This document shows, in pieces, positions 30,889-50,522 of a stretch of DNA of 53,839 nt (the stretch's first letter is position 1; every line of letters starts with the position of its first letter). The notes below the pieces were generated by a model. That model was given only the letters and a program-made list of their open reading frames with translations, did not search any database and had not been told where the DNA came from. Made by a program: the position numbers and the translations under genes. The stretch spans positions 1 to 53,839 of the forward strand of contig JAFSUH010000175.1 of the NCBI GenBank assembly GCA_017445365.1, written 5' to 3'. The DNA is from Kiritimatiellia bacterium (GTDB lineage Bacteria > Verrucomicrobiota > Kiritimatiellia > CAIQIC01 > Lenti-01).

Positions 30889-31080
30889 TTGCCAGAAACA
30901 GCGGTCGCCATTCTTTCGGCCATGAACAAAACCCCAGCCATTACCATCGCCGAATTTTCCACAGCCTTGGACATCTCCTCCAGCGCCGTCGAAAAACACA
31001 TCTCCCGCTTCCGTTCGCGCGGCCTTCCCGTCCGCGTCGGCTCCGACCGTGCCGGCCATTGGAAAGTCCTCGTTCCATGA
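30889..31080 (+). CDS. small wHTH protein (intact copy)
   Basis: ITIAEFSTALDISSSAVEKHISRFRSRGLPVRVGSDRAGHWKVLVP. TTG start at 30889, or ATG at 30922. Confidence 0.45.
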   Translation: MPETAVAILSAMNKTPAITIAEFSTALDISSSAVEKHISRFRSRGLPVRVGSDRAGHWKVLVP

Positions 31081-31158
31081 GTTGCTTCTCCTTTTGTGAT
31101 TCTGGCTCTGCAAGGCATTTGCCGCGTTTGGACACTTGTCGAGCCAACGGGAATTTCA

Positions 31159-31247
31159 CCCGCGGGCTGTGCCTGCCTTCCGACAACAAGATGACGCCCT
31201 TCCAGCAAGATTTAGTCATCGACATCATCCACCGTTGCTTCCTATGA
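31159..31247 (+). pseudogene. duplicated, diverged 3-prime end of the aminotransferase gene
   Basis: Encodes RGLCLPSDNKMTPFQQDLVIDIIHRCFL*, versus RGLCLPSDNKMTPDQQALIIDIVHRCFR* for the true gene end (29713-29802). Confidence 0.7.
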
Positions 31248-32625: not shown

Positions 32626-32688
32626 ATTCTGGAATCGACATGGTGCAAGCCTCCTGCCCCCTGTCACTTGTTGAATCCCAATGGAATA

Positions 32689-34023: not shown

Positions 34024-34029
34024 ATCCTC

Positions 34030-34434
34030 CTCCCAGCGCCTCCAATACCCACATGTTGTTCGACTCCACCGTCCACGCCGACGCCTGATAGGCCTCCAGC
34101 GCGCAGCCGATTGCATCCTCCAATGCCTTCTTCCCACGTTCGGTGTCCGCACGGAACTTCGCCGCGTCCATTTGCGTGAGCAACCCATGCTGATAGGAGT
34201 GGCATCCGATCTGATGGCCCGCATCACGGATTTTCCGGACAATCTCCGGATGATGGTCGACAATCCACCCCGGGCAAAAACAGGTTGCCGTGAGACCCCG
34301 CCGCCCAATTCTTTCAGGATTTGGTCTACGCCGCCATGCTAGCGGCACTCGTATTTCTCCCAGTCCAAATCCATGTACACGCAGTTGCAGTATCAATCCT
34401 CGATGTCAAACGTCAAAAGGTTCATGCACTTCAT
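34030..34434 (-). pseudogene. polysaccharide deacetylase (NodB-homology, DUF3473-like) remnant
   Basis: MKCMNLLTFDIEDWY... from 34434 hits TAG at 34341-34339. The homology then continues in another frame (ATCFCPGWIVDHHPEIVRKIRDAGHQIGCHSYQH...) and is cut off by the convergent dehydrogenase gene. Confidence 0.6.
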
Positions 34435-35005
34435 CTCTTCCGGCAATATGTTTGACGACTCTTGCGGGATTCCCGACCGCAATGCAATAGGGCGGGATAT
34501 CTTTCGTTACCAGAGAACGCGCCCCCACGATGGTTCCCTCCCCGATTGTCACTCCGGGCATGATCATGGTTTCCATGCCAATCATGCATGCTTTCCCAAT
34601 GTGGATATGCCCTTCCCGATACCCCAAATCCGCTGCATTGTCCCCCACCCGGTATCCGCGCAAGTCCCGTTGATGGCACAGCAACCGACATCCGCTTGTC
34701 ACATGGGCGTAATCGTCAATGGTGATCAAGTCGCAATGGCTCGCATCCATGCGCACGTAATCCCCAACGAACACGTTCTTCCCCACGTGGCACCCCATCA
34801 TGCGCAAGAGGCACGGCCGTAGTTTTCTCGGCAGAAGCGGTTCCAAAATGGCCCAGTCCATCATCTTTTCCAACTGCTTGATCCAAATGTTTCGAAAAAC
34901 CTGCCGGATTACCTGCCATAGGCTTACCTGCCCGTATTCCTCCTCGGAATAATGGAAACCCAAGCCTTTCAACATTCGATATGTCAAACTGGTCTGTCTG
35001 GCCAT
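34406..35005 (-). CDS. hexapeptide-repeat (LbH) O-acetyltransferase
   Basis: IGKACMIGMETMIMPGVTIGEGTIVGARSLVTKDIPPYCIAVGNPARV is typical of WbbJ/LacA-type acetyltransferases. Confidence 0.85.
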   Translation of the reverse strand: MARQTSLTYRMLKGLGFHYSEEEYGQVSLWQVIRQVFRNIWIKQLEKMMDWAILEPLLPRKLRPCLLRMMGCHVGKNVFVGDYVRMDASHCDLITIDDYAHVTSGCRLLCHQRDLRGYRVGDNAADLGYREGHIHIGKACMIGMETMIMPGVTIGEGTIVGARSLVTKDIPPYCIAVGNPARVVKHIAGRDEVHEPFDV

Positions 35006-35020
35006 GTCCTCAACCTCCTC

Positions 35021-35914
35021 TCACGCAGTGATTTTTCCTTTGTACTCTTTCATCCACGCCACCGCATCCCGGGGCGAAGCGAAAAAACACCGCACCGCCT
35101 CGCAAGCGGCCCGCAGATAGTGATGCATCTTGAAATGCACGAAAAACAAAACGCCGTGATGTCGGCAAACCACTTGCCGCCTTTCCGCCGCCGTCAGCAA
35201 CCGGAAATGCCGCTTCTTGTGCTCAAAAAGGATTTTCTGCCCCACCAGCTTTTTCTTTCCGGTGGACAACTGCCCCCCCGGATGCTGATAGTTCCGAATG
35301 TGGATTCCCGGTAGATAGCCGAATTTACCTCCGCCCATCAACGCCTTCTCCATCAAAAACCATTCCTGGCACGACGGAGCATCGTCAAATCCGCCAATTT
35401 TCCTCAGATAATCCGCCCGAAACATGAATGTGTTAGTTCCCGAAAGATGGTAGAGCAAGTGGATGCGCATCAGTTCCTCGTTCGTCATCCCTTCTTGGAC
35501 CCGCTGATGCCGTTCGCTGACCTTTTCTTCTGTCCCGTGCCGGTAGGTAGCTCCGTCCATCACCGCGAAATCCCATCCGTTCTCCTCCATCGCCTTCAAT
35601 TGCACTGCCAGCCGTTCCGGCAAATACTTGTCATCGTCATCCAAAAATGAAATATATTTTGTTTTTGCCTCGTCTATCCCATGATTCCGTGTCAATGCTC
35701 CCCCAAGGTTCCTATCGTTCAAGACATACCGGATGCGCGAATCGCTGTACCGCGACACCACCTTCCCCGTCTCCTCCCTCGTCGCACTCCCCGGCGGATT
35801 GTCGTCCACCACGATCAATTCCCAATCCGAAATCGTCTGCCCCAGCACAGACTCGATTGCCCGGGGCAAATACTCCGCACGCCCATGCGTCGGCATTACC
35901 ACACTCACTTTCAT
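35021..35914 (-). CDS. family 2 glycosyltransferase
   Basis: VSVVMPTHGRAEYLPRAIESVLGQT...LIVVDD...FLDDDD. Confidence 0.85.
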   Translation of the reverse strand: MKVSVVMPTHGRAEYLPRAIESVLGQTISDWELIVVDDNPPGSATREETGKVVSRYSDSRIRYVLNDRNLGGALTRNHGIDEAKTKYISFLDDDDKYLPERLAVQLKAMEENGWDFAVMDGATYRHGTEEKVSERHQRVQEGMTNEELMRIHLLYHLSGTNTFMFRADYLRKIGGFDDAPSCQEWFLMEKALMGGGKFGYLPGIHIRNYQHPGGQLSTGKKKLVGQKILFEHKKRHFRLLTAAERRQVVCRHHGVLFFVHFKMHHYLRAACEAVRCFFASPRDAVAWMKEYKGKITA

Positions 35915-35930
35915 CTGAAATCACCTATGT

Positions 35931-36722
35931 TTAATAATTTTTGTTTATCGCATATTGAAGTGCTTTCACGGACAACAAGGATTTTGTCTTGGGGACCAAT
36001 TTGGATGTCGAGACCGACCCCGCATCATTCAAACGCAGTTCTGGATAGTAATACACCGTAAGACCTGCTCTTTCCATCCTCTCTGCCATGTAAAGCTCCT
36101 CCCCGTATAAAAATACCGGATAGTCCAATCGGGGATAATGTTCAAAATAGCGTCTGGTCAGCAAGATAAATCCGCCGTTGCCCTCCCACACGTTTCGCGG
36201 CGTCCAATCATGGAGATATTTCTTTCGTTTGAAGATTGTATTGAGATAAAGCCATTGCAAAATCGGGAATCGAAACATCAAGCACAACCATTGCAGACGG
36301 CGTTTCGATGGCCTGTGCATCCGCAAAGGATTCCGATCCCTTCCGGAAGCGGTCAGGTACAGGCATGGCGCCACCCAGCCCACATTCTCCGTGAATTTGC
36401 AAACCGCCAGTTTTTGGAAGAAATCGTCCTGCATCACCAAATCCACGTTGGAAATCGCGACATAGTCACAAGCCGGAACCGTGGCATCCTCATTCAAAAC
36501 GGCCGCCGCAGCCCCAAAATACCCCAGATTTCCCAAAGGACGCACTTCCAGCCGCACATGCGGCAGAGTCACCTCCACTGGTTGCGGCTTCGTCGAGTTG
36601 TCGGCGACAACTACACGGACCGACACCTGCTCGCACAGCCCGGCCGCCCGGTCGATACTCTTCAGATAGGCTTCAAGTTCCGTGTAAGAATTGTAGTTCA
36701 CGCAAACGATGAGAACCTTCAT
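35931..36722 (-). CDS. family 2-like glycosyltransferase (rhamnosyltransferase-like)
   Basis: VLIVCVNYNSYTELEAYLKSI...VVADNS...ISNVD. GT-A layout. Confidence 0.7.
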   Translation of the reverse strand: MKVLIVCVNYNSYTELEAYLKSIDRAAGLCEQVSVRVVVADNSTKPQPVEVTLPHVRLEVRPLGNLGYFGAAAAVLNEDATVPACDYVAISNVDLVMQDDFFQKLAVCKFTENVGWVAPCLYLTASGRDRNPLRMHRPSKRRLQWLCLMFRFPILQWLYLNTIFKRKKYLHDWTPRNVWEGNGGFILLTRRYFEHYPRLDYPVFLYGEELYMAERMERAGLTVYYYPELRLNDAGSVSTSKLVPKTKSLLSVKALQYAINKNY

Positions 36723-36737
36723 GCCGCACCCTCCTTC

Positions 36738-37910
36738 TTACCTGCCATGCGCGTTGCCGTCCAGAATATGCTCATAAATCCGTTTGTAATCCTGGACCGT
36801 CTGTTTCCAGGACTTGCGCCCCTCATCATAGTCCGCCTCGATTGCCTTGCTCATTTGCTCCCGCATCGACGCATTGTCCAACATCATTTCCATTTTACTT
36901 GCCAAATCTTGCTCATCTCCGGGTTCCACCAGCAATCCGTACTTCCCGTCCAGCACCATCTCCGGTAGCCCTCCGACCCTTGTTGCCACTACCGGGCGAT
37001 GAAAGGCAAACGACGACATCACCACGCCACTCTGGGTCGCATCCAAATACGGAACCACCACGAACAAGGCGTTCCGTATCAGCCCGACCAGCTCCCCGTC
37101 CGGGATGAAGCAGTTCCGCACGTCATATCGGCCAGTCGCCAAATACGGCCCCAAATCCATCGGATACTGCCCCCGCCCGGCGGCAACCAGTTTGACCCCC
37201 GGAAACTTCTCGCATATCTTCCGAAAGGCCGGGAACAACACCTGAAGCCCCTTGTGCTTGGCCACCTGCCCGAAAAACAGGATATAGGGAGACCCCATCG
37301 GTCCAACGGAAGCCTCAGACACCCCCCTCAGATAGATGTAGCTACTGAGTGTGGTCGAAAATACCCGCTTGTCCCGCAACCGATAGTACTCGACAAACCG
37401 CTCCTTCTGCGCTTCGTTGAGCACCACAAAGTTCCGTAACCCAAGCACGGCTATGCGTCTGAAAATCTTGTTTTTCAGCGAATTCTCGTCGGAATGGGGG
37501 AAGGGGTCATGCATCGTCAGCACCATCCGCTCCCGCAACCGCAACAACTCCGCCGACAACAAGGTCGGAGGCCAGTTCAAATGGACAATGTCATATTGTT
37601 CCCGTTTCAACTCCTTCACCAGCTGGTGCGTTACCCAAATGGTCCGAGGATGCCAGCCGCGCGTGGCGCGGTTGACGACCCGCACCTTCCCCAAGTCCAC
37701 GAATTTCTCCAATCCCTTCAAATCGGGATAAATCGACCACGGAAAGATCCCGTTCCCCGGTGCGAACCGCTGGATGTTGATGGCCGCCCGCCGCAGGCAA
37801 AGGGGATTCAAAAGCAAATAATAAGTGATGTCCAGTTCCTGTTGCGCCACGCTCAAATACGACAAATCCACATCCGAGAAGGCGGTCGAGGAGATATAGG
37901 CAATTTTCAC
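36738..37910 (-). CDS. family 4 (GT-B) glycosyltransferase
   Basis: C-terminal FVVVPYLDATQSGVVMSSFAFHRPVVATRVGGLPEMV..GKYGLLVEPGD (EX7E-type region). Confidence 0.85.
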   Translation of the reverse strand: MKIAYISSTAFSDVDLSYLSVAQQELDITYYLLLNPLCLRRAAINIQRFAPGNGIFPWSIYPDLKGLEKFVDLGKVRVVNRATRGWHPRTIWVTHQLVKELKREQYDIVHLNWPPTLLSAELLRLRERMVLTMHDPFPHSDENSLKNKIFRRIAVLGLRNFVVLNEAQKERFVEYYRLRDKRVFSTTLSSYIYLRGVSEASVGPMGSPYILFFGQVAKHKGLQVLFPAFRKICEKFPGVKLVAAGRGQYPMDLGPYLATGRYDVRNCFIPDGELVGLIRNALFVVVPYLDATQSGVVMSSFAFHRPVVATRVGGLPEMVLDGKYGLLVEPGDEQDLASKMEMMLDNASMREQMSKAIEADYDEGRKSWKQTVQDYKRIYEHILDGNAHGR

Positions 37911-37926
37911 GGGCCACTCCCTGGTT

Positions 37927-39144
37927 TCATGTTGGCCGGGCCTGAATGGAATCCATCAAGGTCGCAACAGCGCGTCGATAATTGTCCATGCAGGCTTCCG
38001 CCCGTTCCTGCATCTGTTTCCCGACCATTTCCTTGTCAAAAGAACATAACCGCTCCATGACGGCTTCAGGACTCGGCCATGTCAGCCGCCGGAAAACGGA
38101 ATGACGGTTTCCCTCCAGCCCCAGCTCCCTTAAAAGCAGGAATATCTTGCTGTTGCGCTCATCCCGGCGGCGCAGACCATGAAGCATGCCGTAGTTGTCA
38201 AAGCTGTAGCACGGCACCGCGTTGTGCAAGGCCACGACAATGGGGTGCATCAGCATCCCGACATAGGCGGAAGCATGTCGAATCAGGCCATACCAATCCA
38301 GCGGGGAAAGCGGCAGGGGAATCCGATGATCAAGGGGCAGTCGTTGGCACCCTTCCGCCCGTGGGAACTCCACGCACGTCAAGCCCCTCCGTCCGGCCAG
38401 TTTGGAAAAATGCCGAATCCAGGTGGGGGATGCCGATGATTGGCCCTCGCCGAAGAAGGACACCAGGACATAACGCTCCGGCAAACCGTACCGTCTGCAA
38501 AGCTCCGCCTTGGAGGCGACGGGGGGGCGGTTCTGCTCCATCGCAAAAACAGGATCGGGGGTCACGGGCGGCGAGACTGCGCCGTCCGTGAAGTATTCCA
38601 CCATTTGCCGGGTCCATTCATCCCTCACGCTTAAATAGCGGAAGCGGCGCAATGCCGCCCCTATCGCATCCTTTTGGGGGGCGAAGGCATGATAAGGGGA
38701 ATTCTGCGAAGAAATGGAAAGTCCCGCATACGGCACATTTCCCTCCGGCCCGCAAGGCATCCAAAAAGGATTGGGAAAAGCATGGTCGGAAAAAACGCGG
38801 CTCTTCCGCAGTCGGCGCAACGAAAAGCGCGGGAGCATCAAATTGAAGAGGGAATCGCTTCCGACCAGAACGCCGTCCATCTTTTCATCCCGCACGGCCT
38901 GCCACACCTCTTTTTCATCCCTGCAAAGAGGCGTCATGTCGAAAAAATCCCCGGCGAATTTTTGCACGACCTCCCATTGCTCGCCGGGTATGCGTGCCTT
39001 GAATTTTTGCTCCGAATCCATCGGCCGCCAGTTGATGACGACAGGCTCGTGCCCCATGGCACGAAGACGCAGCACGCTCGCGTACGTCTGCATCTGCGCC
39101 CCGAAATTCGGCGCCCAATGATAGGTCAAAAGTCCTATTTTCAT
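37927..39144 (-). CDS. polysaccharide pyruvyl transferase family protein
   Basis: MKIGLLTYHWAPNFGAQMQTYA... N-terminus and overall size, as recalled for the PS_pyruv_trans family. Confidence 0.7.
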   Translation of the reverse strand: MKIGLLTYHWAPNFGAQMQTYASVLRLRAMGHEPVVINWRPMDSEQKFKARIPGEQWEVVQKFAGDFFDMTPLCRDEKEVWQAVRDEKMDGVLVGSDSLFNLMLPRFSLRRLRKSRVFSDHAFPNPFWMPCGPEGNVPYAGLSISSQNSPYHAFAPQKDAIGAALRRFRYLSVRDEWTRQMVEYFTDGAVSPPVTPDPVFAMEQNRPPVASKAELCRRYGLPERYVLVSFFGEGQSSASPTWIRHFSKLAGRRGLTCVEFPRAEGCQRLPLDHRIPLPLSPLDWYGLIRHASAYVGMLMHPIVVALHNAVPCYSFDNYGMLHGLRRRDERNSKIFLLLRELGLEGNRHSVFRRLTWPSPEAVMERLCSFDKEMVGKQMQERAEACMDNYRRAVATLMDSIQARPT

Positions 39145-40370
39145 GCCACTTGCGCTCCGAGTCCTTCTTCTTCCCCCCGTCGCGACGCCCGTTCCCTGTC
39201 ATACAGTCCGATCAACATCCCCCAAACTACGGCGAATACAAGCTGATAGCTCGGGTAAAGGAAAATATGGCTAACCAGCGAATTGACCAAAAAAATCACG
39301 TAGGAACACGCCATGGCCGGGGCATAGCGCGAGTGTTGCCTTGTCATGACGATGCACCGCCGAATGATTTGCGCATGCAGGAAAAGGTACAAGAGCAGCA
39401 CAAATACCCCCAAATCATACATGATTTCCAAGGGGTCGTTGTGCGCGGAGCACATCAATGGACTGTCCTTGATGACGGTGTTCCACCCATGTCCCGCAAA
39501 CCAGTTCCAAATCGGTGACTCATCGATCATGCGCATGGTTGTCTGCCAGATAAGTGTGCGCCCGCTCCCTCCTGTCTGTCCAATCTCGGTCATCCGCTCG
39601 ACGATGAGCAAGTCGCTGTTCATCACGCGATCCGCGAAAATGCCCGTCAAAACCAATGCCATGACGGCAAGCGTGGCGAATTTCCGAATTTTCTTCCTCC
39701 CCGCGTTGGCAACCAACGGCTGGCACAGCATATAGGCCGCAAGCCCCAGCAGGAAGGCCACCAAGCCCCCCCGTTTGGCCGATTGCACAACGGCAACCAT
39801 CACCAGGGCAATTCCGGACAGCCGCACCCATCGTCTGTGGTTTGCGAGCACCACGGGCAAAAAGTACAGCGGATAATAACATCCGCCAGAAACACCCTCG
39901 CCCAGATGCCGGTAATCAAGGACGATTTGTCTACTTTGAATCGCTCGGACAAACATCATGACAAGCGCTACAAAGGTTGCGGGCGCAATCCACCGCGTGT
40001 CCTTCATGCGTATGGTCAGGGAATATGCGAAGCCTATCGCCAAAAGGGGCAAAGGTATTCTTAAAAAATCAGAACGATTGGGGAAGCTTCCATTCACAAG
40101 CCAACAAAGCGACACGGCATAGGCGACAAGGACCAATGCCTGGAACAATGGGACGGGCGAGGTTCGGATGATGGGAAAGCTTTTGATGACAAACAGCCAA
40201 TAGGCCGCCATGATTGCATAGAAAAGTGGAAGACAATAGAGGGCATAGCCCGATTCCCCTGTCCATATTGCCAACGTCCGCGAGGTAATCTCGCCAAGCA
40301 TGAACACGGCAAAGCAAGCCATGAAGACCATGAAAATAAAACTGACGGTTTTCGTGTTCACTTTGTTCAA
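39141..40370 (-). CDS. wzy: O-antigen polymerase/ligase (Wzy_C) family membrane protein
   Basis: About 10 TM helices. Periplasmic loop with GSGRTLIWQTTMRMI...GHGWN...SAHNDPLEIMYDLG. Confidence 0.8.
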   Translation of the reverse strand: MNKVNTKTVSFIFMVFMACFAVFMLGEITSRTLAIWTGESGYALYCLPLFYAIMAAYWLFVIKSFPIIRTSPVPLFQALVLVAYAVSLCWLVNGSFPNRSDFLRIPLPLLAIGFAYSLTIRMKDTRWIAPATFVALVMMFVRAIQSRQIVLDYRHLGEGVSGGCYYPLYFLPVVLANHRRWVRLSGIALVMVAVVQSAKRGGLVAFLLGLAAYMLCQPLVANAGRKKIRKFATLAVMALVLTGIFADRVMNSDLLIVERMTEIGQTGGSGRTLIWQTTMRMIDESPIWNWFAGHGWNTVIKDSPLMCSAHNDPLEIMYDLGVFVLLLYLFLHAQIIRRCIVMTRQHSRYAPAMACSYVIFLVNSLVSHIFLYPSYQLVFAVVWGMLIGLYDRERASRRGEEEGLGAQVA

Positions 40371-40431
40371 TGCGTCATAAAGCTATGGCTTCAAAATCAT
40401 TCGGCGTGCCAGAAAGAATAGACAGGCGATT

Positions 40432-41511
40432 TCATCGCGGAGCAACATGTTTAGGATAATCAATACCTAAGCGTCCAACTTTCATCGGATCATTATCTTT
40501 CAAAGGTACAACCTGCCCACCATACATTCCTAAATCAAACGTATATTCATACTGGAATCCAGAGGAAAGTATCAACGCCCCCTTCGTTCCCCCGCATCTG
40601 GTCCCGATGAAGCAAGAGCATTTTGAGAGCAGATAGATTGCGCACAAGTATTCTAGTCCTGCCTGAAAACGTGTCTCGCTACTTTGTGCAATTTGCATTT
40701 TTTGGTAGGCTAAAGGCTTCCCATCCGGCAATTGGCTTCGTTTTATCCTGGTTTGCCGATTCACGATGAGCCGTTCCCCGAAAACAGCATGGAAATCGGA
40801 GTAAACATCTTCATCTTCCGTAGCCAAAAACAATGTCTCACACCCGTGCTCGGTCATGACATTTTTTGCTTTTTGGATGACTTGTTGCGAAGTCGGCGGA
40901 ATTGGATGATTTTTCGGGCGCATTGTGAGATAATCTGTCCCACGGCAGAGTACGCCTAGCGTTTTGACTCCACCATTTGGAAGGAGTGATATTTGTTCTT
41001 CAAGGTAGGCCTTCACAAAACTATCGTAACGGATGTACTTTGAAAAAAAAGAACGAAAATATTGGATGCGAGACTTGTCATTATAGAAATTGCCCATGAA
41101 GTGTTCGCGATCGGGAGCTGGATATCTTGCTGCAAGAATCACATTTTTACTTTTGTAAACATCATCTAGACTATAGCCAAATGGTTGTTGAAAATATTTC
41201 TCCCAAACATTCACCTTTCCGAGATCATTTGGTCCCGTATATTGGGTTCGATAATTTTTGTAATCAATGACCGGAATATATCCAGCTTCAACAGCAAAGG
41301 AAATATGCATTAGCGCTTTATTAAGCAGCCAAAAAATTCCACCAGCTGTATCATTAAATCCTATAACATAGAATGTTTTGTCTGGGTTTTCATGTCCATA
41401 ACTCCGCATCTTTGCACGCCGTAAAAACTGTGACCAAGCCCGAAATATCACCGTTCTTGTCCCCAATGAAACAATCTTTCGCGGGATGAATCTTTTGGAA
41501 TTTGCTTTCAT
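40432..41511 (-). CDS. hypothetical glycosyltransferase-like protein with fucosyltransferase-type motifs (low-GC gene)
   Basis: In-frame ATG (MKANSKRF). VLCRGTDY, LFLATEDEDV and IGTRCGGTKGALIL resemble the three motifs of the fucosyltransferase superfamily. Sampled 60-nt lines are 32-35% GC. Confidence 0.45.
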   Translation of the reverse strand: MKANSKRFIPRKIVSLGTRTVIFRAWSQFLRRAKMRSYGHENPDKTFYVIGFNDTAGGIFWLLNKALMHISFAVEAGYIPVIDYKNYRTQYTGPNDLGKVNVWEKYFQQPFGYSLDDVYKSKNVILAARYPAPDREHFMGNFYNDKSRIQYFRSFFSKYIRYDSFVKAYLEEQISLLPNGGVKTLGVLCRGTDYLTMRPKNHPIPPTSQQVIQKAKNVMTEHGCETLFLATEDEDVYSDFHAVFGERLIVNRQTRIKRSQLPDGKPLAYQKMQIAQSSETRFQAGLEYLCAIYLLSKCSCFIGTRCGGTKGALILSSGFQYEYTFDLGMYGGQVVPLKDNDPMKVGRLGIDYPKHVAPR

Positions 41512-41525
41512 CTTGCACTCTCCAA

Positions 41526-43058
41526 TTATTTCCGCAACCGACACATGATTCCGAAAGTGATATTTCTTATCAACCCGCGCTCGACATGCGAAAGTGCAAA
41601 CGTATATGTTCCAAATAAAATGGATAAAGATGTAGCAATTCCAACACGCAACACCCGCCACAAGGATGCAGTCATAAAATAGTGAAGTGGGTATGCCAGC
41701 CAAAATGCGCCTAACAATGTCGTGCACATTGGGAAAAAACACTTCACGAAATAAGCAACTACCGGATACCCGACAAGGGTGCGGGCAAAATAAAGGCGGA
41801 CAGCCAAGCAGCACATTTCAATGACGACTGTCGAAAACAGCACTGCATATGGCTGGAATCCCGTCCGCATGAGCATGTAGGCGATTGGAAGGTTCAGGAT
41901 GAGGACACAGGACAACGCGAGGCGGTATGCCTTAATTTTTCCGCCGGCATCAATGGACAGCGCCACGCCGGACGAAAATTGGAACAGAAGTTGGCAAAGC
42001 AAAATCAGCCTGCAAAAGGGAACGGTGTATTCCGGGATGTTGTCGCCCAGCCAAAGGGCCAGCAGGCTCCGCATTTCAATGATGGCCGGGATGGCCATCA
42101 GGCCAAAAACGAGCGTTGCGACCTTGACCAGGGAAAACGACATGGCCAAGGAGACGTCGCGTTGATTGGCGCCTTCCTTCTGCATCAACTGGGGGGCGAT
42201 GGCCTTTTGAATGCTGGATGTGAACGACGACAGCAAGCCGTTGATTTGGTTGGCGACGCCATAGGCCGCATTGATGGCCGTTCCCTTGAACAGGTTCAAT
42301 ATGATGGCAATGCCTTGGTTTTTCCCCATCATGGCGACGGACCCGAAAGCGGACCATCCGGCATAGGACACCATTTCCTGAAACAGGCTTCTTTCAACCG
42401 GGGCATGGAAATCAATGCGAATGGCTCGGTATCTCGAACGGACAATTTTCCACTTCAAGAAGGTCGCCGCAATGTAGATGGAGGCCATGCCGATTCCGTA
42501 GAAGAGCAATTTGTCCCATGCGACATAAAAAAGGAAAAATGCCAAAAGAAGTTTTCCAAAAGCCTCCGCGACAAAGATGAGGGAGATGGCCAGCATGTTT
42601 TCGTAGGCATTGAGGGCGGCATCGTACGGCACGGCCAAAATGGAGAAGAATGTGCTGACGACCATGAATTGATAGATCCACTTTGCGGCTACGATGCGTT
42701 CGGGCCGGATATTGAGGAACCCGTTGAACAAGAAGAGCGCGCACACCTCCATGAAAATGGCGATGAGAACGGCAAGGCACAAGTGGATTCTGATGCTTGC
42801 ATTGTACACCGCATTGAGTTTCCCGGCGTCTTTCATCCCCATCGTGACGGACATGTAGCGCTGACTGGCAACCGTCATGGAGGAATTGAGGAACGCGAGC
42901 ATGACCACGACGCCCGCGACGAGATTGTAAAGGCCGTAATCCGAAACGCCCAGCGCGCGAAGGGTTACGGGAACCGTCCAAAGCGAAAGCACCATGCAAA
43001 CGATGATTTTTGCATACAGGATGCCGGTGTTGAGGATGATGCGGTTCCCGGCCTTCAT
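41526..43058 (-). CDS. wzx: Wzx-type polysaccharide flippase (MOP superfamily)
   Basis: 510 aa with about 12-14 TM helices. N-terminal ILNTGILYAKIIV... pattern. Confidence 0.85.
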   Translation of the reverse strand: MKAGNRIILNTGILYAKIIVCMVLSLWTVPVTLRALGVSDYGLYNLVAGVVVMLAFLNSSMTVASQRYMSVTMGMKDAGKLNAVYNASIRIHLCLAVLIAIFMEVCALFLFNGFLNIRPERIVAAKWIYQFMVVSTFFSILAVPYDAALNAYENMLAISLIFVAEAFGKLLLAFFLFYVAWDKLLFYGIGMASIYIAATFLKWKIVRSRYRAIRIDFHAPVERSLFQEMVSYAGWSAFGSVAMMGKNQGIAIILNLFKGTAINAAYGVANQINGLLSSFTSSIQKAIAPQLMQKEGANQRDVSLAMSFSLVKVATLVFGLMAIPAIIEMRSLLALWLGDNIPEYTVPFCRLILLCQLLFQFSSGVALSIDAGGKIKAYRLALSCVLILNLPIAYMLMRTGFQPYAVLFSTVVIEMCCLAVRLYFARTLVGYPVVAYFVKCFFPMCTTLLGAFWLAYPLHYFMTASLWRVLRVGIATSLSILFGTYTFALSHVERGLIRNITFGIMCRLRK

Positions 43059-43761: not shown

Positions 43762-43838
43762 CCGCGCGGCCTGATTCGGCCGAAAGTTGCCCGAAATCAA
43801 GTTTCTTTGTTTCGAGAAAGTTGTTTTGTTGCATTTTG
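43762..43838 (+). repeat. repeat A, copy 1 (77 bp, identical to 45601-45677) upstream of ATPase 1
   Basis: ccgcgcggcctgattcggccgaaagttgcccgaaatcaagtttctttgtttcgagaaagttgttttgttgcattttg. Confidence 0.95.
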
Positions 43839-43902: not shown

Positions 43903-45081
43903 ATGTTGATTGCACGCCAAATGGAAGCTGCCATGAGAGCCTCGGCGGAAGAGTATCCCGTCCTGACCGTTGTCGGCCCCCGTCAATCGGGAAAAACGAC
44001 TTTGGTCAGGACTCTCTTTCCATCGAAACCCTATCAAACGCTGGAAACACCCTCCACCCGCCTCCGCGCGGAAAGCGATCCCCAGGGGTTTCTGGCATCG
44101 TTTCCCGATGGGGCCATCCTCGATGAAGTCCAGCGCGTGCCCTCCCTCCTTTCCTACATCCAAGGCATCGTGGACGAAAAGAACCGGAACGGACTTTTCG
44201 TTTTGACGGGGTCCGCCAACCTTCTTTTGATGCAAAACGTCAGCCAGTCCTTGGCCGGGCGATGTGCCGTATTCACCCTTTTGCCCTTCAGTCTCGCCGA
44301 AGCGGCGGGCGTTCTTCCCTCCGACTCCCCGCTTTCCGCCATCCTTTGCGGGGGCTATCCCCGCCTTCTTGTCCGGGGCATGGGACGCCCGCGTTTCTTC
44401 GCCAACTACATCGACACCTATGTCGAGCGCGACATCCGCCAACTTCTCAACATCAAGAACACGCTTCTTTTTTCGCGATTCCTGCGCCTTCTGTCCGGGC
44501 GGGTCGGATCGCTCCTCGATCGCACGTCGCTCGCGAACGATTGCGGCATCTCGACGAAAACCGTCGCTGAATGGTTTTCCGTCCTCCAAGCTTCCTCCAT
44601 CTGCTTTCTTCTCCCTCCTTGGCATGACAACCGCGGCAAGCGCCTTGTCAAAACCCCGAAAATCTACTTCCACGACACCGGCCTGGCCTGTGCCTTGGCC
44701 GGAATCGAAACCGAGCGGCAGCTCGAACGCGATCCGCTCCGCGGCGGGCTTTTCGAAAACTTGATTGTTTTGGAAGCTTTGAAGCGCGCCCTCAACGCCG
44801 GTCGGAAACCCGATTTGTATTTCTACCGGGATGCCAACGGTGTCGAAATCGATCTTGTCGAACAGCGGGCGGGATGTCTCCATCCCGTCGAAATCAAGTC
44901 TTCGGCGACTTTCCATCCCGATTTTTGCAAATCCCTCTTCACCTTTGCCGCCCGCCATCCCGGACGTTGCGATTCGCCGTCCCTCGTCTATGGCGGGAGG
45001 GAACGTTTCATCCACAAGGGCGTTTCCGTCCTGCCTTTCGCAAATGCGTTTCCGCCGCTCTCCGAAGCGCCGGATGCATGA
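43903..45081 (+). CDS. AAA ATPase, AAA_14 + DUF4143 type (paralog 3)
   Basis: GPRQSGKTT, AILDEVQ, LTGSANLLLMQNVSQSLAGR. C-terminal VEIDLV...HPVEIKSS is a PD-(D/E)xK-like pattern. Confidence 0.85.
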   Translation: MLIARQMEAAMRASAEEYPVLTVVGPRQSGKTTLVRTLFPSKPYQTLETPSTRLRAESDPQGFLASFPDGAILDEVQRVPSLLSYIQGIVDEKNRNGLFVLTGSANLLLMQNVSQSLAGRCAVFTLLPFSLAEAAGVLPSDSPLSAILCGGYPRLLVRGMGRPRFFANYIDTYVERDIRQLLNIKNTLLFSRFLRLLSGRVGSLLDRTSLANDCGISTKTVAEWFSVLQASSICFLLPPWHDNRGKRLVKTPKIYFHDTGLACALAGIETERQLERDPLRGGLFENLIVLEALKRALNAGRKPDLYFYRDANGVEIDLVEQRAGCLHPVEIKSSATFHPDFCKSLFTFAARHPGRCDSPSLVYGGRERFIHKGVSVLPFANAFPPLSEAPDA

Positions 45082-45244
45082 TTGCCTTGCCCTGTGCACG
45101 CTTTCCCGTTTCGTCCATCTCCGGAACGATTCCGCGCATTCCACGATCCGTCATTCCCTTTCGAGCATCCTGTTTCGACTTCCTTTCGACGAAACATTGG
45201 TTCGGGACGAAGACCATGCTAGAGGGGGCAGGCCCCGACGGGAA

Positions 45245-45372
45245 GGTTCGCGGCGGGAAAGACCATCTTGAAAGGCATCGCATGAAAGCATTGATCTTGA
45301 ATTCCGGGCTGGGCAGTCGCATGGGCGTGCCCACGTCCGAACACCCCAAGTGCATGACGGAGGTTCCGCCGC
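45245..45372 (+). pseudogene. repeat B, copy 1: duplicated, diverged 5-prime end (leader plus first 30 codons) of the PEP-mutase fusion gene
   Basis: ATG at 45282 reads MKALILNSGLGSRMGVPTSEHPKCMTEV, then diverges into junk. 117/128 nt identical to 47017-47144. Confidence 0.7.
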
Positions 45373-45600
45373 GTTTTGCGGGACAGGGCAACTGCGAGCT
45401 CCTCTTTCCCTTGCCGAAATTTTATTCGAACTTTTTCGGCTTGAACCGAAGAAATGCCGACTCGGTCGGGAATCGCGGCCGGAATCCCGTCAGGGAAAAC
45501 ATTTGATGCTGCCTGTCCCTTTCGGCGTTCCATGGCCTTTCCGGGCAATGAATGCTGAAATCGTTGCCTTTGGAGCATATGAGGGGAAAACTTGTTTGGT

Positions 45601-45677
45601 CCGCGCGGCCTGATTCGGCCGAAAGTTGCCCGAAATCAAGTTTCTTTGTTTCGAGAAAGTTGTTTTGTTGCATTTTG
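45601..45677 (+). repeat. repeat A, copy 2 upstream of ATPase 2
   Basis: 77/77 identical to 43762-43838. Confidence 0.95.
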
Positions 45678-45718
45678 CAAAACGCGCCGCTAGTGTACCC
45701 GCGGCAGGAAACACCGAG

Positions 45719-46867
45719 ATGAATGCAAATCCTTTCGTTTACGGGAAAGAAGTGGCCGGGGAGAATTTCTACGACCGCCGGGAAGATTTTTCCCGGCTGG
45801 TTTCGACCTTGGAGGGAGGGGCGGCCAATGTCGTCCTGTATGCGCCCCGGCGCTACGGCAAGACGTCGCTGGCGAAAAAAGCGCTCGGCGAACTGGCACG
45901 GCGGGGCTTCCGGTGCGTTTATTTCGATTTCATGCGCGTGGAATCCGTCCCGAAATTCTGCGAGGCCTATGCTTCTTCCGTGTATGCACTGGAACGAGGG
46001 ACCGTGCGCGCCATGCGCAGGATCGGGAAAACCCTCTCGGCATTGCGTCCCCGCTTCACCGTCGGCGACGACGGGAAGCCCGCCCTCGAACTCGACTTGG
46101 GCGTGAAGCCGACGGTCGCGACCCTCGAAGAAACGCTCGACCTTCCAGAAAGGCTGGCCGACCCGAAACATCCCGTGGTCGTGGCCTTCGACGAATTCCA
46201 GGAAATCGGCACGCTATCCCCGTCCCTTCCTCTCGAGGGCGTTTTCCGCGGCTGCATCCAACGCCACCGCCTGGTCCGCTATTTGTTCCTGGGCAGCAAA
46301 ACCCACATGATCAAGCGGATGTTCGCCGATCGTTCCCGTCCGTTCTACAATTCCGCGGCCATCCAACGTCTGGACGTGCCCTCCGGGGAGGAGTCGGCGG
46401 CCTTCGTCGAAGCGCGATTCGCGTCCGTGGGGATGCGAATCGAAAAGGATGCCGTCCAAACCGTGCTGGAAATGTCCAAGGGGATTCCCTACTACGTCCA
46501 AGCCCTGTCCGCCCTGTCCTTTGAGGAAGCGGTGGCCGCTCCGGTCCGGCATCCGGTGTGCGTTGGCGATGTCGAATCGGCTGCAAGGCGTTTGCTCGAA
46601 TCCAAGAGCGATGTTTACGAAAGCGTTCTCCAAGCCCTCTCCGCGTCGCAACGGACCCTTCTTGCGGCACTTGCGCGCAAGCCCGTCCGGCGCTTCGATG
46701 CGGGTTTCCGCGCCGCCAACGGAATCGGAACGTTGTCCGGGCTTCATTCCGCACTGGCCGTGCTGCTTGAAAAAGGCCATGTGGAAGCCACCCTGCGCGG
46801 ATATGAAATCGGCGATCCGTTTTTTGCCCGCTATCTCACGGAGTCCGTATTCCATGTCATTGAATGA
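45719..46867 (+). CDS. ATP-binding protein of the archaeal-type ATPase (PF01637-like) family
   Basis: NPFVYGKEVAGENFYDRREDFSRL, Walker A APRRYGKTS, Walker B VVAFDEFQE. Probable C-terminal wHTH region. Confidence 0.8.
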   Translation: MNANPFVYGKEVAGENFYDRREDFSRLVSTLEGGAANVVLYAPRRYGKTSLAKKALGELARRGFRCVYFDFMRVESVPKFCEAYASSVYALERGTVRAMRRIGKTLSALRPRFTVGDDGKPALELDLGVKPTVATLEETLDLPERLADPKHPVVVAFDEFQEIGTLSPSLPLEGVFRGCIQRHRLVRYLFLGSKTHMIKRMFADRSRPFYNSAAIQRLDVPSGEESAAFVEARFASVGMRIEKDAVQTVLEMSKGIPYYVQALSALSFEEAVAAPVRHPVCVGDVESAARRLLESKSDVYESVLQALSASQRTLLAALARKPVRRFDAGFRAANGIGTLSGLHSALAVLLEKGHVEATLRGYEIGDPFFARYLTESVFHVIE

Positions 46868-47053
46868 ATTCCCGTCTCGCATCGGGCCTCCTCCCGTTCT
46901 GCTGCTTTTGCGCAGCTCTTGCGGACGCGTTTGTACTTTTGTCCGTTCCACTCCTTCGCAAAAAATTGTTTCGAGCGGGAGAGAATGCCGGGGGAATCGG
47001 ATTCTCCTGCAGGCAGGGTTCGCGGCGGGAAAGACCATCTTGAAAGACATCGC

Positions 47054-49066
47054 ATGAAAGCATTGATTTTGAATTCCGGTCTCGGTTCCCGCATGGGCGT
47101 GCTCACTTCCGAACACCCCAAGTGCATGACGGAGGTTTCGCCGCGGGAGACCATCCTCTCCCGGCAACTGAACCAGCTGGCGGAAGTCGGCATCACGGAC
47201 GTGGTGATGACGACCGGCCCCTTCGACGGGGTGCTCGAAAACTACTGCCGCTCGCTCGACCTGCCGCTGGACATCCGGTTCGTCAAGAACCCCGTGTACG
47301 ACAAGACGAACTACATCTACTCCATCCATTGCGCGCGGGAACTCCTGCTCGACGACGACATCCTCTTGATGCACGGCGACCTCGTTTTCGAAAACGAGGT
47401 TCTCGACATGCTTCTGGCCGCCCCCGGCTCCGCGATGGCCGTTTCCTCCACCCTGCCGCTCCCCGAAAAGGACTTCAAGGCGGTCGTCCGCGACGGCATG
47501 GTGCAGAAGGTCGGCACCGGGTTTTTCGGGGAAGGGGCGATGGCGGCCCAGGCGCTTTACAAGCTCGACCGGGCCGATTGGCGGCTCTGGCTCGACAAAA
47601 TCGCGGCTTTCTGCGAGGCCGGAAACACCGGCGTCTACGCCGAAAACGCCCTGAACGAACTCGACGGGGCCGCCAACATCCGCGCGTGCGACGTTCGCGA
47701 CCTCCTGTGCGCGGAAATCGACAACCCCGACGACCTCGCCGCCGTTTCCGCCAAGCTCGCCGCCGTCGAATCGCGCACCGTGTACGCGGTTTTCTCGACC
47801 GACATCCTCCACGGCGGGCACGTCGCCATCCTCCGCAAGGCCGCGCGCCTCGGTCGCGTCATCGTGGGGGTCCTTTCCGACGAAGCCGTCGTCGCGTACA
47901 AGCGCTTCCCGCTCGTTCCCGCCGCGGAACGAAAGAAACTTTTCGAGAGCATCGCGGGCGTCTGGAAGGTGGTGGACCAGCGGACGCTTTCCTACCGGGA
48001 AAACCTTGCAAAGTACCGCCCCGACATCGTGGTCCACGGCGACGACTGGTGCCAGGGCTTCCAGAAGCCCGTCCGCGACGAAGTGGTGGCCTTGCTTGCC
48101 GGATACGGCGGCCGTCTCGTGGAGTTTCCGCATTCCGACGCGCCCGAATACCGCGAAATGGAAGCGCGCGCCCGCGCCGAACTCTCCCTCCCCGACATCC
48201 GCCGCGCCCGGCTCAGGAAGACCCTCGAAATGAAGGGGTTCGCGACCGCGATGGAAGCGCACAGCGGCATCACCGGGCTTATCGTCGAAAAGACCAAGGT
48301 GTACCAGGACGGCGGCACGCACCAGTTCGACGCGATGTGGGTTTCCTCGCTCTGCGACTCCACCGCGAAGGGCAAGCCCGACATCGAGCTGGTGGACATG
48401 ACCAGCCGCTTCCGCACCATCGACGACATCATGGAAGTGACGACCAAGCCCATCATCTTCGACGGCGACACCGGGGGACTCGCCGAGCACTTCGTCTACA
48501 CGGTCCGCTCGCTGGAACGGATGGGCGTCTCCATGGTCATCATCGAGGACAAGACGGGGCTCAAGAAGAACTCGCTCTTCGGGATCGAAGTCGCCCAGAC
48601 GCAGGACAGCATCGAAAACTTCTCCGCGAAGATCCGCGCCGGGAAGAAAGCGCAAAAAACGCGGGATTTCATGATTTGCGCGCGCATAGAGTCGCTCATC
48701 CTCGAGCGCGGCATGGAAGACGCGCTGGCGCGGGCATCCGCTTTCGTCGAAGCCGGAGCGGATGCCATCATGATCCACTCGCGCAAGAAAGACCCTTCCG
48801 AAATCAAGGAGTTCATCCGCCTCTTCCGCGAAAAGGACCCGACCACGCCCATCGTGCTGGTGCCGACCTCGTTCAATTCCGTGACCGAAGAGGAATGGAA
48901 GGCTCTCGGCGCGAACATCGTGATTTACGCGAACCAGCTCACCCGCACGGGCTTTCCGGCGATGCAGAACGCGGCCAAAACCATCCTCGAACACCACCGG
49001 GCGAAGGAATGCGACGCGATGTGCATGTCCATCAAGGACATCATCACGCTCATTCCCGAAGAGTAG
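47054..49066 (+). CDS. pepM: three-domain protein: LicC/PntC-like nucleotidyltransferase + HxGH cytidylyltransferase + phosphoenolpyruvate mutase
   Basis: N-terminal MKALILNSGLGSRMG (GxGxR NTP-transferase). Middle VYAVFSTDILHGGHVAILRKA (HxGH). C-terminal PEP mutase with IIEDKTGLKKNS (EDKxxxxxNS signature). Confidence 0.88.
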   Translation: MKALILNSGLGSRMGVLTSEHPKCMTEVSPRETILSRQLNQLAEVGITDVVMTTGPFDGVLENYCRSLDLPLDIRFVKNPVYDKTNYIYSIHCARELLLDDDILLMHGDLVFENEVLDMLLAAPGSAMAVSSTLPLPEKDFKAVVRDGMVQKVGTGFFGEGAMAAQALYKLDRADWRLWLDKIAAFCEAGNTGVYAENALNELDGAANIRACDVRDLLCAEIDNPDDLAAVSAKLAAVESRTVYAVFSTDILHGGHVAILRKAARLGRVIVGVLSDEAVVAYKRFPLVPAAERKKLFESIAGVWKVVDQRTLSYRENLAKYRPDIVVHGDDWCQGFQKPVRDEVVALLAGYGGRLVEFPHSDAPEYREMEARARAELSLPDIRRARLRKTLEMKGFATAMEAHSGITGLIVEKTKVYQDGGTHQFDAMWVSSLCDSTAKGKPDIELVDMTSRFRTIDDIMEVTTKPIIFDGDTGGLAEHFVYTVRSLERMGVSMVIIEDKTGLKKNSLFGIEVAQTQDSIENFSAKIRAGKKAQKTRDFMICARIESLILERGMEDALARASAFVEAGADAIMIHSRKKDPSEIKEFIRLFREKDPTTPIVLVPTSFNSVTEEEWKALGANIVIYANQLTRTGFPAMQNAAKTILEHHRAKECDAMCMSIKDIITLIPEE

Positions 49067-49116: not shown

Positions 49117-50055
49117 TCAGGGGAGGGGAGGCATGGCGAGGAGGTCGCCAAATGCGAGGTCCTTTTCCGGCGGGAAGAAACATTCCAAGCCGCTGCCGTG
49201 GTAGAAGGTCAGTTCCCCGAAGTACACCTTCCCGCCCACGTGGAACAGGTCCACCCGGACGTACGGCCAGCCCGCCGAAAGCGTCCGCGCGATGTCCGCC
49301 ATCTCCTCCAGCGCCGCGGGCCGCGGCACGTCCGGCCCGTTCGGCCACTTGGGCGAGCCGTCCGCCTCCGTTTCGCACCACAAAAACGGCTGTTTTTGCC
49401 ACTGCAAATCGTAGAAATTCCGCTTGTGGGCGGTTTCGCGGTCCAAATCGACCTGCACGGCCGCCACTTCGCCCGCAAAACAGTGGAATTTGTAGTCTTT
49501 CGGAAGCGCCCCGTCCCCTTCCAGCAGCAATTTTTCCGCCGTGATGCGCGGAACCACCCCGCGGTACGGCCACTCGCGCGAAATCGCCGCGTGGTTTTCC
49601 TTCATCCAGCGCGCAAGTGTTTTCTTGATTTCGCGCCCGTCCTCTTTCGCCTTGTCGCGGACGATCCAGTTCTGCCCGCTTCCGTGGTTGACTTTGAGTA
49701 CGAAAGCGTCCGGCAAGGCGTCAAACGAAACCTCCCGCGCCTTTTCCCAGACGCCCAACAGCGGAACCAGGTGTTTTTCGCCGATTTTCCCGGCGACAAC
49801 TGCGCGGACGGCGTACTTGTCCACCAGCCGCGTCATGTCCGGCCTGCGGAAACGCGTTTTGAGGACGTTGAGCTTTTCGTTGAGCGTCCGGGGGTGTTCC
49901 CAATCGAGCGGGCAGCCAAAAACGCGCTCGAAATCGTGCGAAACGGCGCTTTCGTCGCTCCGCCAGCCGCCGAGGAGCCACCAGTCGCGGGCGTGCAACA
50001 GCGCCGCGAGGCCGGGAATCCGTTCGGCCCGTTTCCGCCATGCCGCGCGCGTCAT
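49117..50055 (-). CDS. TupA-like ATP-grasp amidoligase family protein
   Basis: In-frame ATG overlapping the ruvX stop (ATGA). NEKLNVLK...DKYAVR..V...G...LVPLLGVW...LP..FVLKVNHGSG.N....DYKFHCF.G......VDLDR...H.RNFYD pattern recalled for the ATPgrasp_TupA family. Confidence 0.75.
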   Translation of the reverse strand: MTRAAWRKRAERIPGLAALLHARDWWLLGGWRSDESAVSHDFERVFGCPLDWEHPRTLNEKLNVLKTRFRRPDMTRLVDKYAVRAVVAGKIGEKHLVPLLGVWEKAREVSFDALPDAFVLKVNHGSGQNWIVRDKAKEDGREIKKTLARWMKENHAAISREWPYRGVVPRITAEKLLLEGDGALPKDYKFHCFAGEVAAVQVDLDRETAHKRNFYDLQWQKQPFLWCETEADGSPKWPNGPDVPRPAALEEMADIARTLSAGWPYVRVDLFHVGGKVYFGELTFYHGSGLECFFPPEKDLAFGDLLAMPPLP

Positions 50056-50522
50056 GGCATCGGCCCGTGCGCGTCGAGATACGACTGGAGGATGACCTGC
50101 GCGGCGAGCTTGTCGACGACGGCGCTCCGCTTTTCGCGGCGGGTGCCCGCGGCAATCAACACGCTTTCGGCAATCTTGGTCGAAAGCCGTTCGTCCCACG
50201 TCTCGACCGGCAAGTCCGTGCGCTTGCGCAGTTCGTCGAGGAATTTCCGGGTCGCCGCGATGCGCGGTCCCTCGCCGCCGGACATGTCGAGCGGCCAGCC
50301 GATGACGATTTTTCCGGCGCCTTCGGCCGCGGCGTATCGCGCGACGGCGGCGGCGGCCTGGTCGGCGCGCGTGCATTCCAGGGTCGTCCGCGGGAAGGCG
50401 ATGCAGGCGATCTCGTCGCTCATGGCGAGGCCCGTCCGCCGTTCGCCGTAATCGACGCCCAGCACGCGGCCGCTCCCCCGGGAAGCCGGGCTTTCCGGAG
50501 GGACGGGGGAAGCGGGGGCCAT
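50052..50522 (-). CDS. ruvX: Holliday junction resolvase-like nuclease RuvX (YqgF)
   Basis: VLGVDYGERRTGLAMSD, IVIGWPLDMSG, WDERLST, VDKLAAQVILQSYLD. Confidence 0.85.
   Translation of the reverse strand: MAPASPVPPESPASRGSGRVLGVDYGERRTGLAMSDEIACIAFPRTTLECTRADQAAAAVARYAAAEGAGKIVIGWPLDMSGGEGPRIAATRKFLDELRKRTDLPVETWDERLSTKIAESVLIAAGTRREKRSAVVDKLAAQVILQSYLDAHGPMP

Follow-up and report, generated by a model that had tools for sequence, protein, structure and literature searches.

Bacteria are believed to employ carbon–phosphorus (C–P) bond synthesis chiefly for decorating their cell surfaces with phosphonates, and the steps past phosphoenolpyruvate (PEP) mutase (Ppm) are poorly known. The gene considered here lies in a 53,839-nt (53.8-kb) stretch of a Kiritimatiellia bacterium (contig JAFSUH010000175.1 of assembly GCA_017445365.1; hereafter the window) and encodes a LicC/PntC-like nucleotidyltransferase (NT), a Fom1-like cytidylyltransferase (CyTase) and a Ppm on a single chain. 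Fom1 of Streptomyces wedmorensis has the architecture seen in the last two of these domains, and its HxGH and YKR are retained in the middle domain of the window protein; the LicC-like front domain of the latter is an extra that Fom1 lacks. Together with Fom2, a phosphonopyruvate decarboxylase (Ppd), and FomC, a reductase of phosphonoacetaldehyde (PnAA), it represents the same early steps to 2-hydroxyethylphosphonate (HEP), since a Ppd and an iron-containing alcohol dehydrogenase (Fe-ADH) are present in the genome studied here. The Fom1 system serves antibiotic synthesis, whereas here the context is one of glycan decoration with partners in trans, and no gene of the Fom3, Fom4 or FomD type was seen. 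PntC (Tde1415 of Treponema denticola, PDB 6pd1/6pd2; Ari1348) and LicC of S. pneumoniae (1jyk) are of the same fold family as the N-terminal domain, with which they share the signature GxG(T/S)Rx4-8PK, a conserved Lys (in DFKA) and acidic metal ligands. They are only distantly related to it, and the subfamily to which it belongs is found fused to Fe-ADH, not to 2-aminoethylphosphonate (AEP) transaminase (AEPT). The chemistry predicted here matches that of the HEP-decorated exopolysaccharide system of Stackebrandtia nassauensis (PhpC type; Li and Horsman 2022, PMC8942020), in which Ppm, Ppd and Fe-ADH yield HEP that ends up on a polysaccharide, though lineage and gene organisation differ.

The closest counterpart is the triple-fusion Ppm class, which has the same domain composition, domain order and Ppm motif as the window protein (Rice et al. 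2019, Nat Commun 10:3698, PMC6697681). In that survey of 1485 RefSeq Ppm proteins, 33.0% carried a fused PF12804 domain, 23.6% a PF01467 domain and 2.9% the two together; this last class was counted, not biochemically characterised. The window protein carries PF12804, PF01467 and PF13714 together with the Ppm motif on one chain, the combination by which the class is recognised, and, compared along its entire length, shares 71–90% identity with members from Ruminococcus flavefaciens 007c, Lachnospiraceae, Oscillospiraceae and other groups. An earlier note on the window, made without database searches, had pointed to two kinds of NT domain in one polypeptide; this is correct as a description, though not as a novelty, given the 2.9% of the 2019 survey and our detection of the triple fusion in at least 582 GTDB species genomes (scanned at one genome per species). 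The architecture is not new, and the window gene is a further member of the class, unusual in lacking adjacent partners: about 80% of loci in the class have a neighbouring Fe-ADH and Ppd, and this one has neither. With a probability of roughly 0.68, we favour the reading that it is a horizontally acquired family member working with partners in trans, in a route running from PEP through phosphonopyruvate (PnPy), PnAA, HEP and CMP-HEP to transfer onto a glycan.

The frame of the gene is uninterrupted and encodes 670 amino acids (aa); the longest open reading frame (ORF) over it begins at a TTG at 46919, and we place the start at 47054 instead because about 200 full-length tri-domain homologues (668–670 aa) all open with MKALILNSG, which corresponds to that position. 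Pfam matches to NTP_transf_3 (aa 3–127, E = 3.5e-11), CTP_transf_like (aa 250–344, E = 7.9e-12) and PEP_mutase (aa 391–645, E = 8.5e-53) lie far past chance and confirm that the three-domain composition is real. The three domains named in the earlier note were likewise upheld by NCBIfam profiles and by structure matches, including the middle one as a nucleotidyltransferase. A scan for promoters and terminators around the gene yielded nothing informative.

The C-terminal domain scores 393.8 bits on TIGR02320 (PEP_mutase) against an equivalog cut-off of 319.55, and on the same protein the models for phosphonopyruvate hydrolase and methylisocitrate lyase score far under their own cut-offs. The EDKxxxxxNS signature previously noticed in the C-terminal third, by which Ppm is told apart from the rest of the Ppm/isocitrate lyase superfamily, is there as EDKTGLKKNS at aa 498–507 (48545–48574), a sequence shared letter for letter by 198 of 202 family members; the metal-binding FDGDTGG lies at 48458–48478. 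When aligned to the Mytilus PEP mutase (1m1b), residues D443, D470, D472, E498, N506, S507, R544 and H575 fall at the metal and substrate positions, which we take to be D58, D85, D87, E114, N122, S123, R159 and H190 of the Mytilus enzyme. These data strongly support a bona fide PEP mutase, predicted to convert PEP to PnPy.

The N-terminal domain likewise appears to carry every catalytic signature. The segment GLGSRMGVLTSEHPK at aa 9–23 (47078–47122) fits GxG(S/T)Rx8PK, so that the pyrophosphate/alpha-phosphate site of the GxG(T/S)Rx4-8PK type (Arg15 and Lys25 of Tde-PntC) is present, and an alignment of the subfamily shows no variation at G9, G11, R13 or K23; further motifs are HGD (aa 107–109), DFKA (aa 140–143) and EIDNPDD (aa 221–227). 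The best match among solved structures is LicC (1jyk), which a profile of the subfamily finds over positions 2–235 with E = 3e-19, compared with 8.4e-14 for Tde-PntC (6pd1); the single sequence gives 2.6e-7 and 4e-4, respectively. Past residue 130 both alignments are too weak for a reliable mapping of the Tde-PntC residues Glu104 and Glu196 (associated with AEP preference and a small pocket). The closest relatives of the domain, 45–60% identical, are stand-alone proteins or fusions: among ten scanned (one per 50%-identity cluster), six were fused to Fe-ADH and one to CyTase plus ADH, and the ADH parts of these fusions are 37–49% identical to the ADH linked to tri-domain genes. By Rosetta-stone reasoning, this recurrent fusion suggests the product of the reductase as the substrate on which the LicC-like module acts, and the pairing with Fe-ADH, not AEPT, points to HEP over AEP.

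The middle domain presents a more complicated case. It matches the CyTase structure of Fom1 (5x3d) with E = 7e-35 over 124 residues at about 55% identity, and contains HGGH at aa 253–256 (47810–47821) as its HxGH CTP-binding motif. H253 and H256 are invariant in all 201 aligned family members, R284 is invariant, and K283 and R341 are nearly so. The tail of the domain departs from this pattern: where Fom1 reads PYTPGISST, the window protein has FPHSDAPEY from 48125, running slightly beyond the domain end at 48139. A G[IVL]S[STA][ST] motif occurs in none of 202 triple-fusion family members, all 202 of which have P(Y/H)SxDxxY in its place, whereas GISST-type motifs are retained by Fom1 and by the di-domain proteins of the Kiritimatiellia relatives. 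In TagD, the second CTP-binding motif is RTxGISTT, with Arg113 essential (PMC8262930). Judging from these comparisons, the middle domain is a true homologue of HxGH cytidylyltransferases that fails one defining motif of the HxGH family, and its activity is uncertain because the second CTP-binding motif has been lost.

We considered two simple accounts of this loss and rejected both. The domain does not look like a decaying relic, as its mean pairwise identity across the family (76%) is not below that of the N-terminal domain (73.5%; the Ppm domain stands at 84.5%) and its HxGH histidines are invariant. Replacement of a dead CyTase by the LicC-like domain fits the Kiritimatiellia relatives, whose genomes with an intact di-domain enzyme contain no LicC-like homologue, though it fails as a general rule owing to two Clostridia clusters (L145, L146) in which an NT–ADH fusion stands beside a CyTase-Ppm that retains HSGH and GISAT.

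Other permutations of these modules were also seen. A 751-aa protein (P0126, at L147 on contig C7 of genome G115) joins a LicC-like NT to a CyTase without GISST and to an Fe-ADH, and the roughly 9 kb to each side of its gene contain no PEP mutase; elsewhere, NT–ADH fusions adjoin CyTase-Ppm genes (L145, L146) or the NT is encoded by a stand-alone gene (L148–L151).

The triple-fusion family is coherent and widespread. In a word-index search, the best 120 matches to the window protein were all tri-domain (656–714 aa, 78–90% identical), and clustering at 50% identity left one full-length representative among the best 150 matches listed, which indicates a single tight clade spanning several phyla. 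The loci described below are the best 80 of the stretches found in at least 582 species; these are 71–81% identical to the window protein over the full length, come nearly all from gut or rumen, and belong to Lachnospiraceae, Oscillospiraceae, Ruminococcus, Christensenellales, Lentisphaeria, Bacteroidales, Chloroflexi, Sphaerochaetaceae and Solobacterium. The tree built for 202 members groups the window protein with its closest matches, including cluster mates named Kiritimatiellae or Kiritimatiellia bacterium, in a well-supported clade that lies within Clostridia-dominated diversity. Identity to the tri-domain protein of a sister genus (g6) reaches 90%, against only 62–75% for the housekeeping proteins of that genus, a discrepancy from which we infer horizontal transfer.

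Gene order in the family is equally regular. Among 69 loci with at least 2.4 kb of downstream sequence, 55 have the tri-domain gene followed by Fe-ADH and then Ppd; a few Bacteroidales loci have Ppd before ADH, and about six of the 69 have neither gene in the usual positions. LicD genes flank 25 of the 80 loci, often directly upstream, and a TagF-like gene flanks four. The R. flavefaciens 007c locus illustrates the arrangement, with three LicD genes, GT2, Wzy, an aminotransferase, a TagD-like cytidylyltransferase-oxidoreductase, the tri-domain gene, Fe-ADH, Ppd and a flippase. This usual cassette predicts HEP as the product and makes an AEP transaminase unnecessary; the absence of such a gene from the flanks of the window gene, which the earlier note had correctly reported, is no more than the HEP route would lead one to expect. 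All other members of the 90% cluster of the window protein have the order 730-aa protein, tri-domain gene, ADH, PhdYeFM/PIN toxin–antitoxin pair, Ppd. In the window, by contrast, neither Fe-ADH nor Ppd adjoins the gene and a convergent TupA-like gene follows its stop codon; the window copy is an orphan and the odd one out of its family.

Some details of the family cassettes are worth recording. The PhdYeFM/PIN pair is inserted between Fe-ADH and Ppd in every sister-genus copy (L020, L021, L022, L152–L156). The conserved protein of about 730 aa, which has no Pfam match and lies directly 5' of the sister-genus tri-domain gene (L020:7661-9859, L153:5667-7859), is a candidate phosphonyl transferase or acceptor-side enzyme; the genome studied here has only a weak partial homologue, on contig C62. 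In an uncultured Chloroflexi (RUG11948), a true AEP–pyruvate transaminase (L066:8036-9136; TIGR02326, 507 bits) replaces Fe-ADH 3' of the tri-domain gene, as also at L029; in some lineages the fusion enzyme may thus be part of an AEP route.

Since the window lacks the usual partners, the rest of its assembly becomes important. This metagenome-assembled genome (MAG) of an uncultured Kiritimatiellia bacterium comprises 248 contigs with a total of 2.33 Mb, at a completeness of 66% and an estimated contamination of 0.7%; the window's contig is C108. Genome-wide searches found a single Ppm (the tri-domain gene) and a single Ppd above the equivalog cut-off, at C173:2522-3655 (473 bits against 312.5) on a continuous 29-kb contig. 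There, a gene for a 387-aa homologue of the TagF-like CDP-glycerol glycerophosphotransferases (PF04464) is followed after a 40-bp gap by Ppd and then by an Fe-ADH. Inside the window, neither the genome-wide Ppd search nor that for AEPT gave a match, and no Ppd, AEP transaminase or other PnPy consumer was seen among the neighbours scanned from 28.5 kb to the window end. The earlier note was accordingly right that the decarboxylase partner is missing from the window, though not from the genome, and its surprise at the absence falls because a Ppd exists in trans on C173. No AEPT scored above cut-off anywhere in the genome, the best match reaching 145.7 bits against 360.8 (contig C38). Three genes of the LicD transferase family are present.

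The C173 genes appear to have a different history from the tri-domain gene. Their Ppd is 57–61% identical to that of the CyTase-Ppm, Ppd and ADH clusters of the relatives, in which the motifs HPGH and GISS(T/S) are intact, and 50% identical to the Ppd linked to tri-domain genes. The Ppd–ADH pair thus seems to resemble the native Fom1-type cluster of the taxonomic family, and the lineage would have kept this native pair, which would now depend on an imported triple-fusion mutase. Orthologues of the C173 TagF-like protein are present in g6, without any neighbours in common with C173.

We propose the following route, inferred to operate in trans because the only Ppd of the genome and an Fe-ADH sit on C173 and not beside the tri-domain gene. 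The C-terminal domain would turn PEP into PnPy, and the C173 Ppd would draw this unfavourable reaction forward by converting PnPy to PnAA; sequence gives good support to both steps. The Fe-ADH would then reduce PnAA to HEP, as PhpC and FomC do (PMC8942020), and one of the two NT domains would form CMP-HEP. Finally, the TagF-like enzyme of C173 or one of the three LicD-family transferases may place the phosphonyl group on a surface glycan. The mutase gene itself, which lies at the edge of a recombination hotspot, would have been gained by horizontal transfer.

Several observations weigh against this proposal. The C173 Fe-ADH scores 110 bits on TIGR03405 (phosphonate Fe-ADH) against a cut-off of 423.7 and is only 35–38% identical to the ADHs linked to tri-domain genes, and in a minority of the family's loci (L066) a genuine AEP transaminase accompanies the fusion. 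With a MAG of 248 contigs and 66% completeness, it cannot be shown that C108 and C173 share one chromosome, and a native CyTase-Ppm or a second ADH–Ppd pair could lie in the missing third. The adjacency of the gene to the glycan locus of the window may be coincidental. The earlier note had also considered that a tri-domain form with a distal ppd might prove common and already characterised: the form is common and a distal Ppd is a minority arrangement, and we found no biochemical characterisation of any triple fusion.

The missing third of the genome gives rise to the first alternative, in which the C173 Ppd–ADH pair serves a native, unassembled Fom1-type CyTase-Ppm and the window gene is a stranded, redundant passenger of the hotspot, with a minor contribution or already heading for loss. 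The affinity of the C173 Ppd to clusters with intact HPGH and GISS(T/S) motifs, the 66% completeness and the duplicated 5' ends of the hotspot at whose edge the gene lies would all fit. Nevertheless, the 29 kb of C173 are continuous and contain no Ppm, with a TagF-like gene 40 bp from the Ppd, and the window gene has an intact ORF with all catalytic residues conserved and is the sole Ppm in the assembled part of the genome, and we therefore regard this alternative as unlikely.

A second alternative concerns the product. Here a class V aminotransferase on contig C38 would aminate PnAA, and the PntC-like N-terminal domain would make CMP-AEP as Tde1415 and Ari1348 do. The best NCBIfam match of the C38 enzyme is indeed PhnW-AepZ, its R. 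flavefaciens homologue (54% identical) lies two genes 5' of the tri-domain gene there, the N-terminal domain is homologous to PntC, and immediately 3' of the fusion gene a genuine AEPT is found in a few loci of the family (L066, 507 bits on TIGR02326). Yet the C38 enzyme reaches 146 bits where the cut-off is 360.8, the Ppd-linked gene is an Fe-ADH both here and in 80% of family loci, and the N-terminal subfamily is repeatedly fused to ADH, so an AEP product seems distinctly unlikely in this genome.

A third alternative is that the split pathway is a binning artefact, with C108 and C173 derived from different organisms. The MAG is in 248 contigs, and GC content differs between C108 (60%) and C173 (67%); however, the low value of C108 is due to an imported glycan island, the rest of that contig being at 62–70%, and estimated contamination is 0.7%. 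Housekeeping genes on the two contigs are also equidistant from every genus of the same family: MnmG on C108 is 61–63% identical to its counterpart in each, and valyl-tRNA synthetase (ValRS) on C173 is 72–75% identical. Such distances would be expected of two pieces of one new genus, though they are not proof of it, and we give the artefact little credence. Very improbable, finally, is a route without any decarboxylase, in which PnPy or a derivative is drawn off by another sink such as direct cytidylylation by a fused NT domain: the window contains no Ppd, AEPT or PnPy consumer, about six of 69 family loci also have no ADH and Ppd within 6 kb, and two NT domains are retained, but the same genome has a high-scoring Ppd, the family is overwhelmingly Ppd-linked, and we know of no precedent for cytidylylation of PnPy.

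If the window gene is, as we favour, a horizontally acquired mutase with partners in trans, the locus amounts to a natural experiment in which a triple-fusion mutase has been separated from its decarboxylase and reductase and apparently uses partners of other origin encoded elsewhere. This would imply that the modules of the pathway can be exchanged for one another and move between the phyla of gut and rumen. It also raises a question at the level of the family, namely why hundreds of species keep two unrelated nucleotidyltransferases, one of them with a remodelled CTP site.

The two NT domains may be non-redundant, a suggestion that we hold tentatively and think somewhat doubtful. It is kept open by the conservation of H253 and H256 despite the loss of GISST, by a level of conservation like that of the N-terminal domain, and by the fusions of LicC-like domains to reductases; moreover, the NT, CyTase, Ppm, ADH and Ppd modules recur in many orders and fusions, which can be argued to mean that both nucleotidyltransferases matter. 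Were they non-redundant, the LicC-like domain may have taken over activation of HEP, and the Fom1-like domain may have gained a new role, such as sensing or binding the nucleotide, activating another substrate or acting as a scaffold for the mutase. In that case, the TagF-like enzyme encoded beside Ppd might polymerise CMP-HEP into a teichoic-acid-like phosphonate chain.

The surroundings of the gene in the window (Table 1) agree with the earlier description of an ATPase hotspot upstream and a convergent ATP-grasp gene downstream, both of which Pfam recovers. The two AAA-type ATPase genes are unrelated to each other, and the region 43762–47145 is built as a tandem hotspot in which each ATPase gene has a 77-nt repeat to its left and a 134-nt repeat to its right; this could reflect real unequal recombination or an assembly that strung strain variants together. 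At the DNA level, similarity to the closest relatives begins 3–12 nt 5' of the ATG and stops one base past the stop codon. The 5' end of the tri-domain gene would therefore be a recombination joint, with the gene at the edge of the hotspot.

Table 1 Coordinates of the tri-domain gene, its domains and neighbouring features in the window.
Feature	Position	Strand	Evidence
Tri-domain gene, 670 aa + stop (LicC/PntC-like NT, Fom1-like CyTase, PEP mutase)	47054..49066	+	Open frame, Pfam, NCBIfam, structure matches, same-start homologues
LicC/PntC-like nucleotidyltransferase domain, aa 1-235	47054..47758	+	Pfam PF12804/PF00483; profile vs LicC 1jyk, Tde-PntC 6pd1
Fom1-like HxGH cytidylyltransferase domain, aa 243-362	47780..48139	+	5x3d match, Fom1 tail sequence, motif census
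PEP mutase domain, aa 386-670	48209..49063	+	TIGR02320; residue alignment to Mytilus PEP mutase 1m1b
AAA_14/DUF4143 ATPase gene (hotspot cargo 1)	43903..45081	+	Pfam
ATPase_2/AAA_16-like ATPase gene (hotspot cargo 2)	45626..46867	+	Pfam
Repeat A, first copy (77 nt, 100% identical to second), 5' of DUF4143 ATPase gene	43762..43838	+	Direct-repeat search
Repeat A, second copy, at start of second ATPase gene	45601..45677	+	Direct-repeat search
Repeat B, 42-nt leader + first 31 codons of tri-domain gene (134 nt)	47012..47145	+	Direct-repeat family, alignment
Repeat B', 90%-identical copy of repeat B, truncated stub 5' of second ATPase gene	45240..45373	+	Repeat search, alignment
Convergent TupA-like ATP-grasp gene	49117..50376	-	PF14305, E 2e-55
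Glycan-synthesis locus	28507..43058		Pfam; lower GC in part

Downstream, a gap of 50 nt separates the stop codon of the tri-domain gene from the convergent TupA-like gene. Homologues of the latter occur in 14 of 25 relatives and align only over aa 104/123–416, for which reason its true start is probably near 50055 (about 312 aa), and the upstream part of the long ORF probably belongs to another gene. An empty site without the tri-domain gene was sought through these homologues in the 14 relatives, and none shares the flanks. As a functional partner the TupA-like gene was rejected: it neighbours a tri-domain gene in only one other of the 80 loci (Flexilinea, L087) and is absent from the other 79, and we take the pairing as coincidence because the genome has no amino-phosphonate route. 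In that Flexilinea sp., the TupA-like gene (L087:9710-10615) lies 1.6 kb downstream of an orphan tri-domain gene, on the same strand, and no ADH or Ppd occurs within 4.7 kb of the latter.

Upstream of the hotspot, the glycan-synthesis locus contains genes for a DegT aminotransferase, PIG-L, an initiating sugar transferase, a UDP-sugar dehydrogenase and an acetyltransferase, together with GT2, GT4, a pyruvyl transferase, Wzy and Wzx. Its product is a possible acceptor polymer. The earlier suggestion that the phosphonate decorates this adjacent glycan stands in so far as C–P synthesis for glycan decoration is sensible; its weaker part is the adjacency, which may be coincidental.

A second cluster of the decoration type lies outside the window, at C38:8686-14634. 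It comprises LicD, an S-adenosylmethionine (SAM) methyltransferase, the AEPT-like class V aminotransferase (146 bits, below cut-off), a low-GC insertion encoding an AAA ATPase, and a fusion of a TagD-like cytidylyltransferase with a GFO/IDH/MocA oxidoreductase. This TagD-like fusion and the aminotransferase are 54–56% identical to the products of the two genes just 5' of the tri-domain gene of R. flavefaciens 007c.

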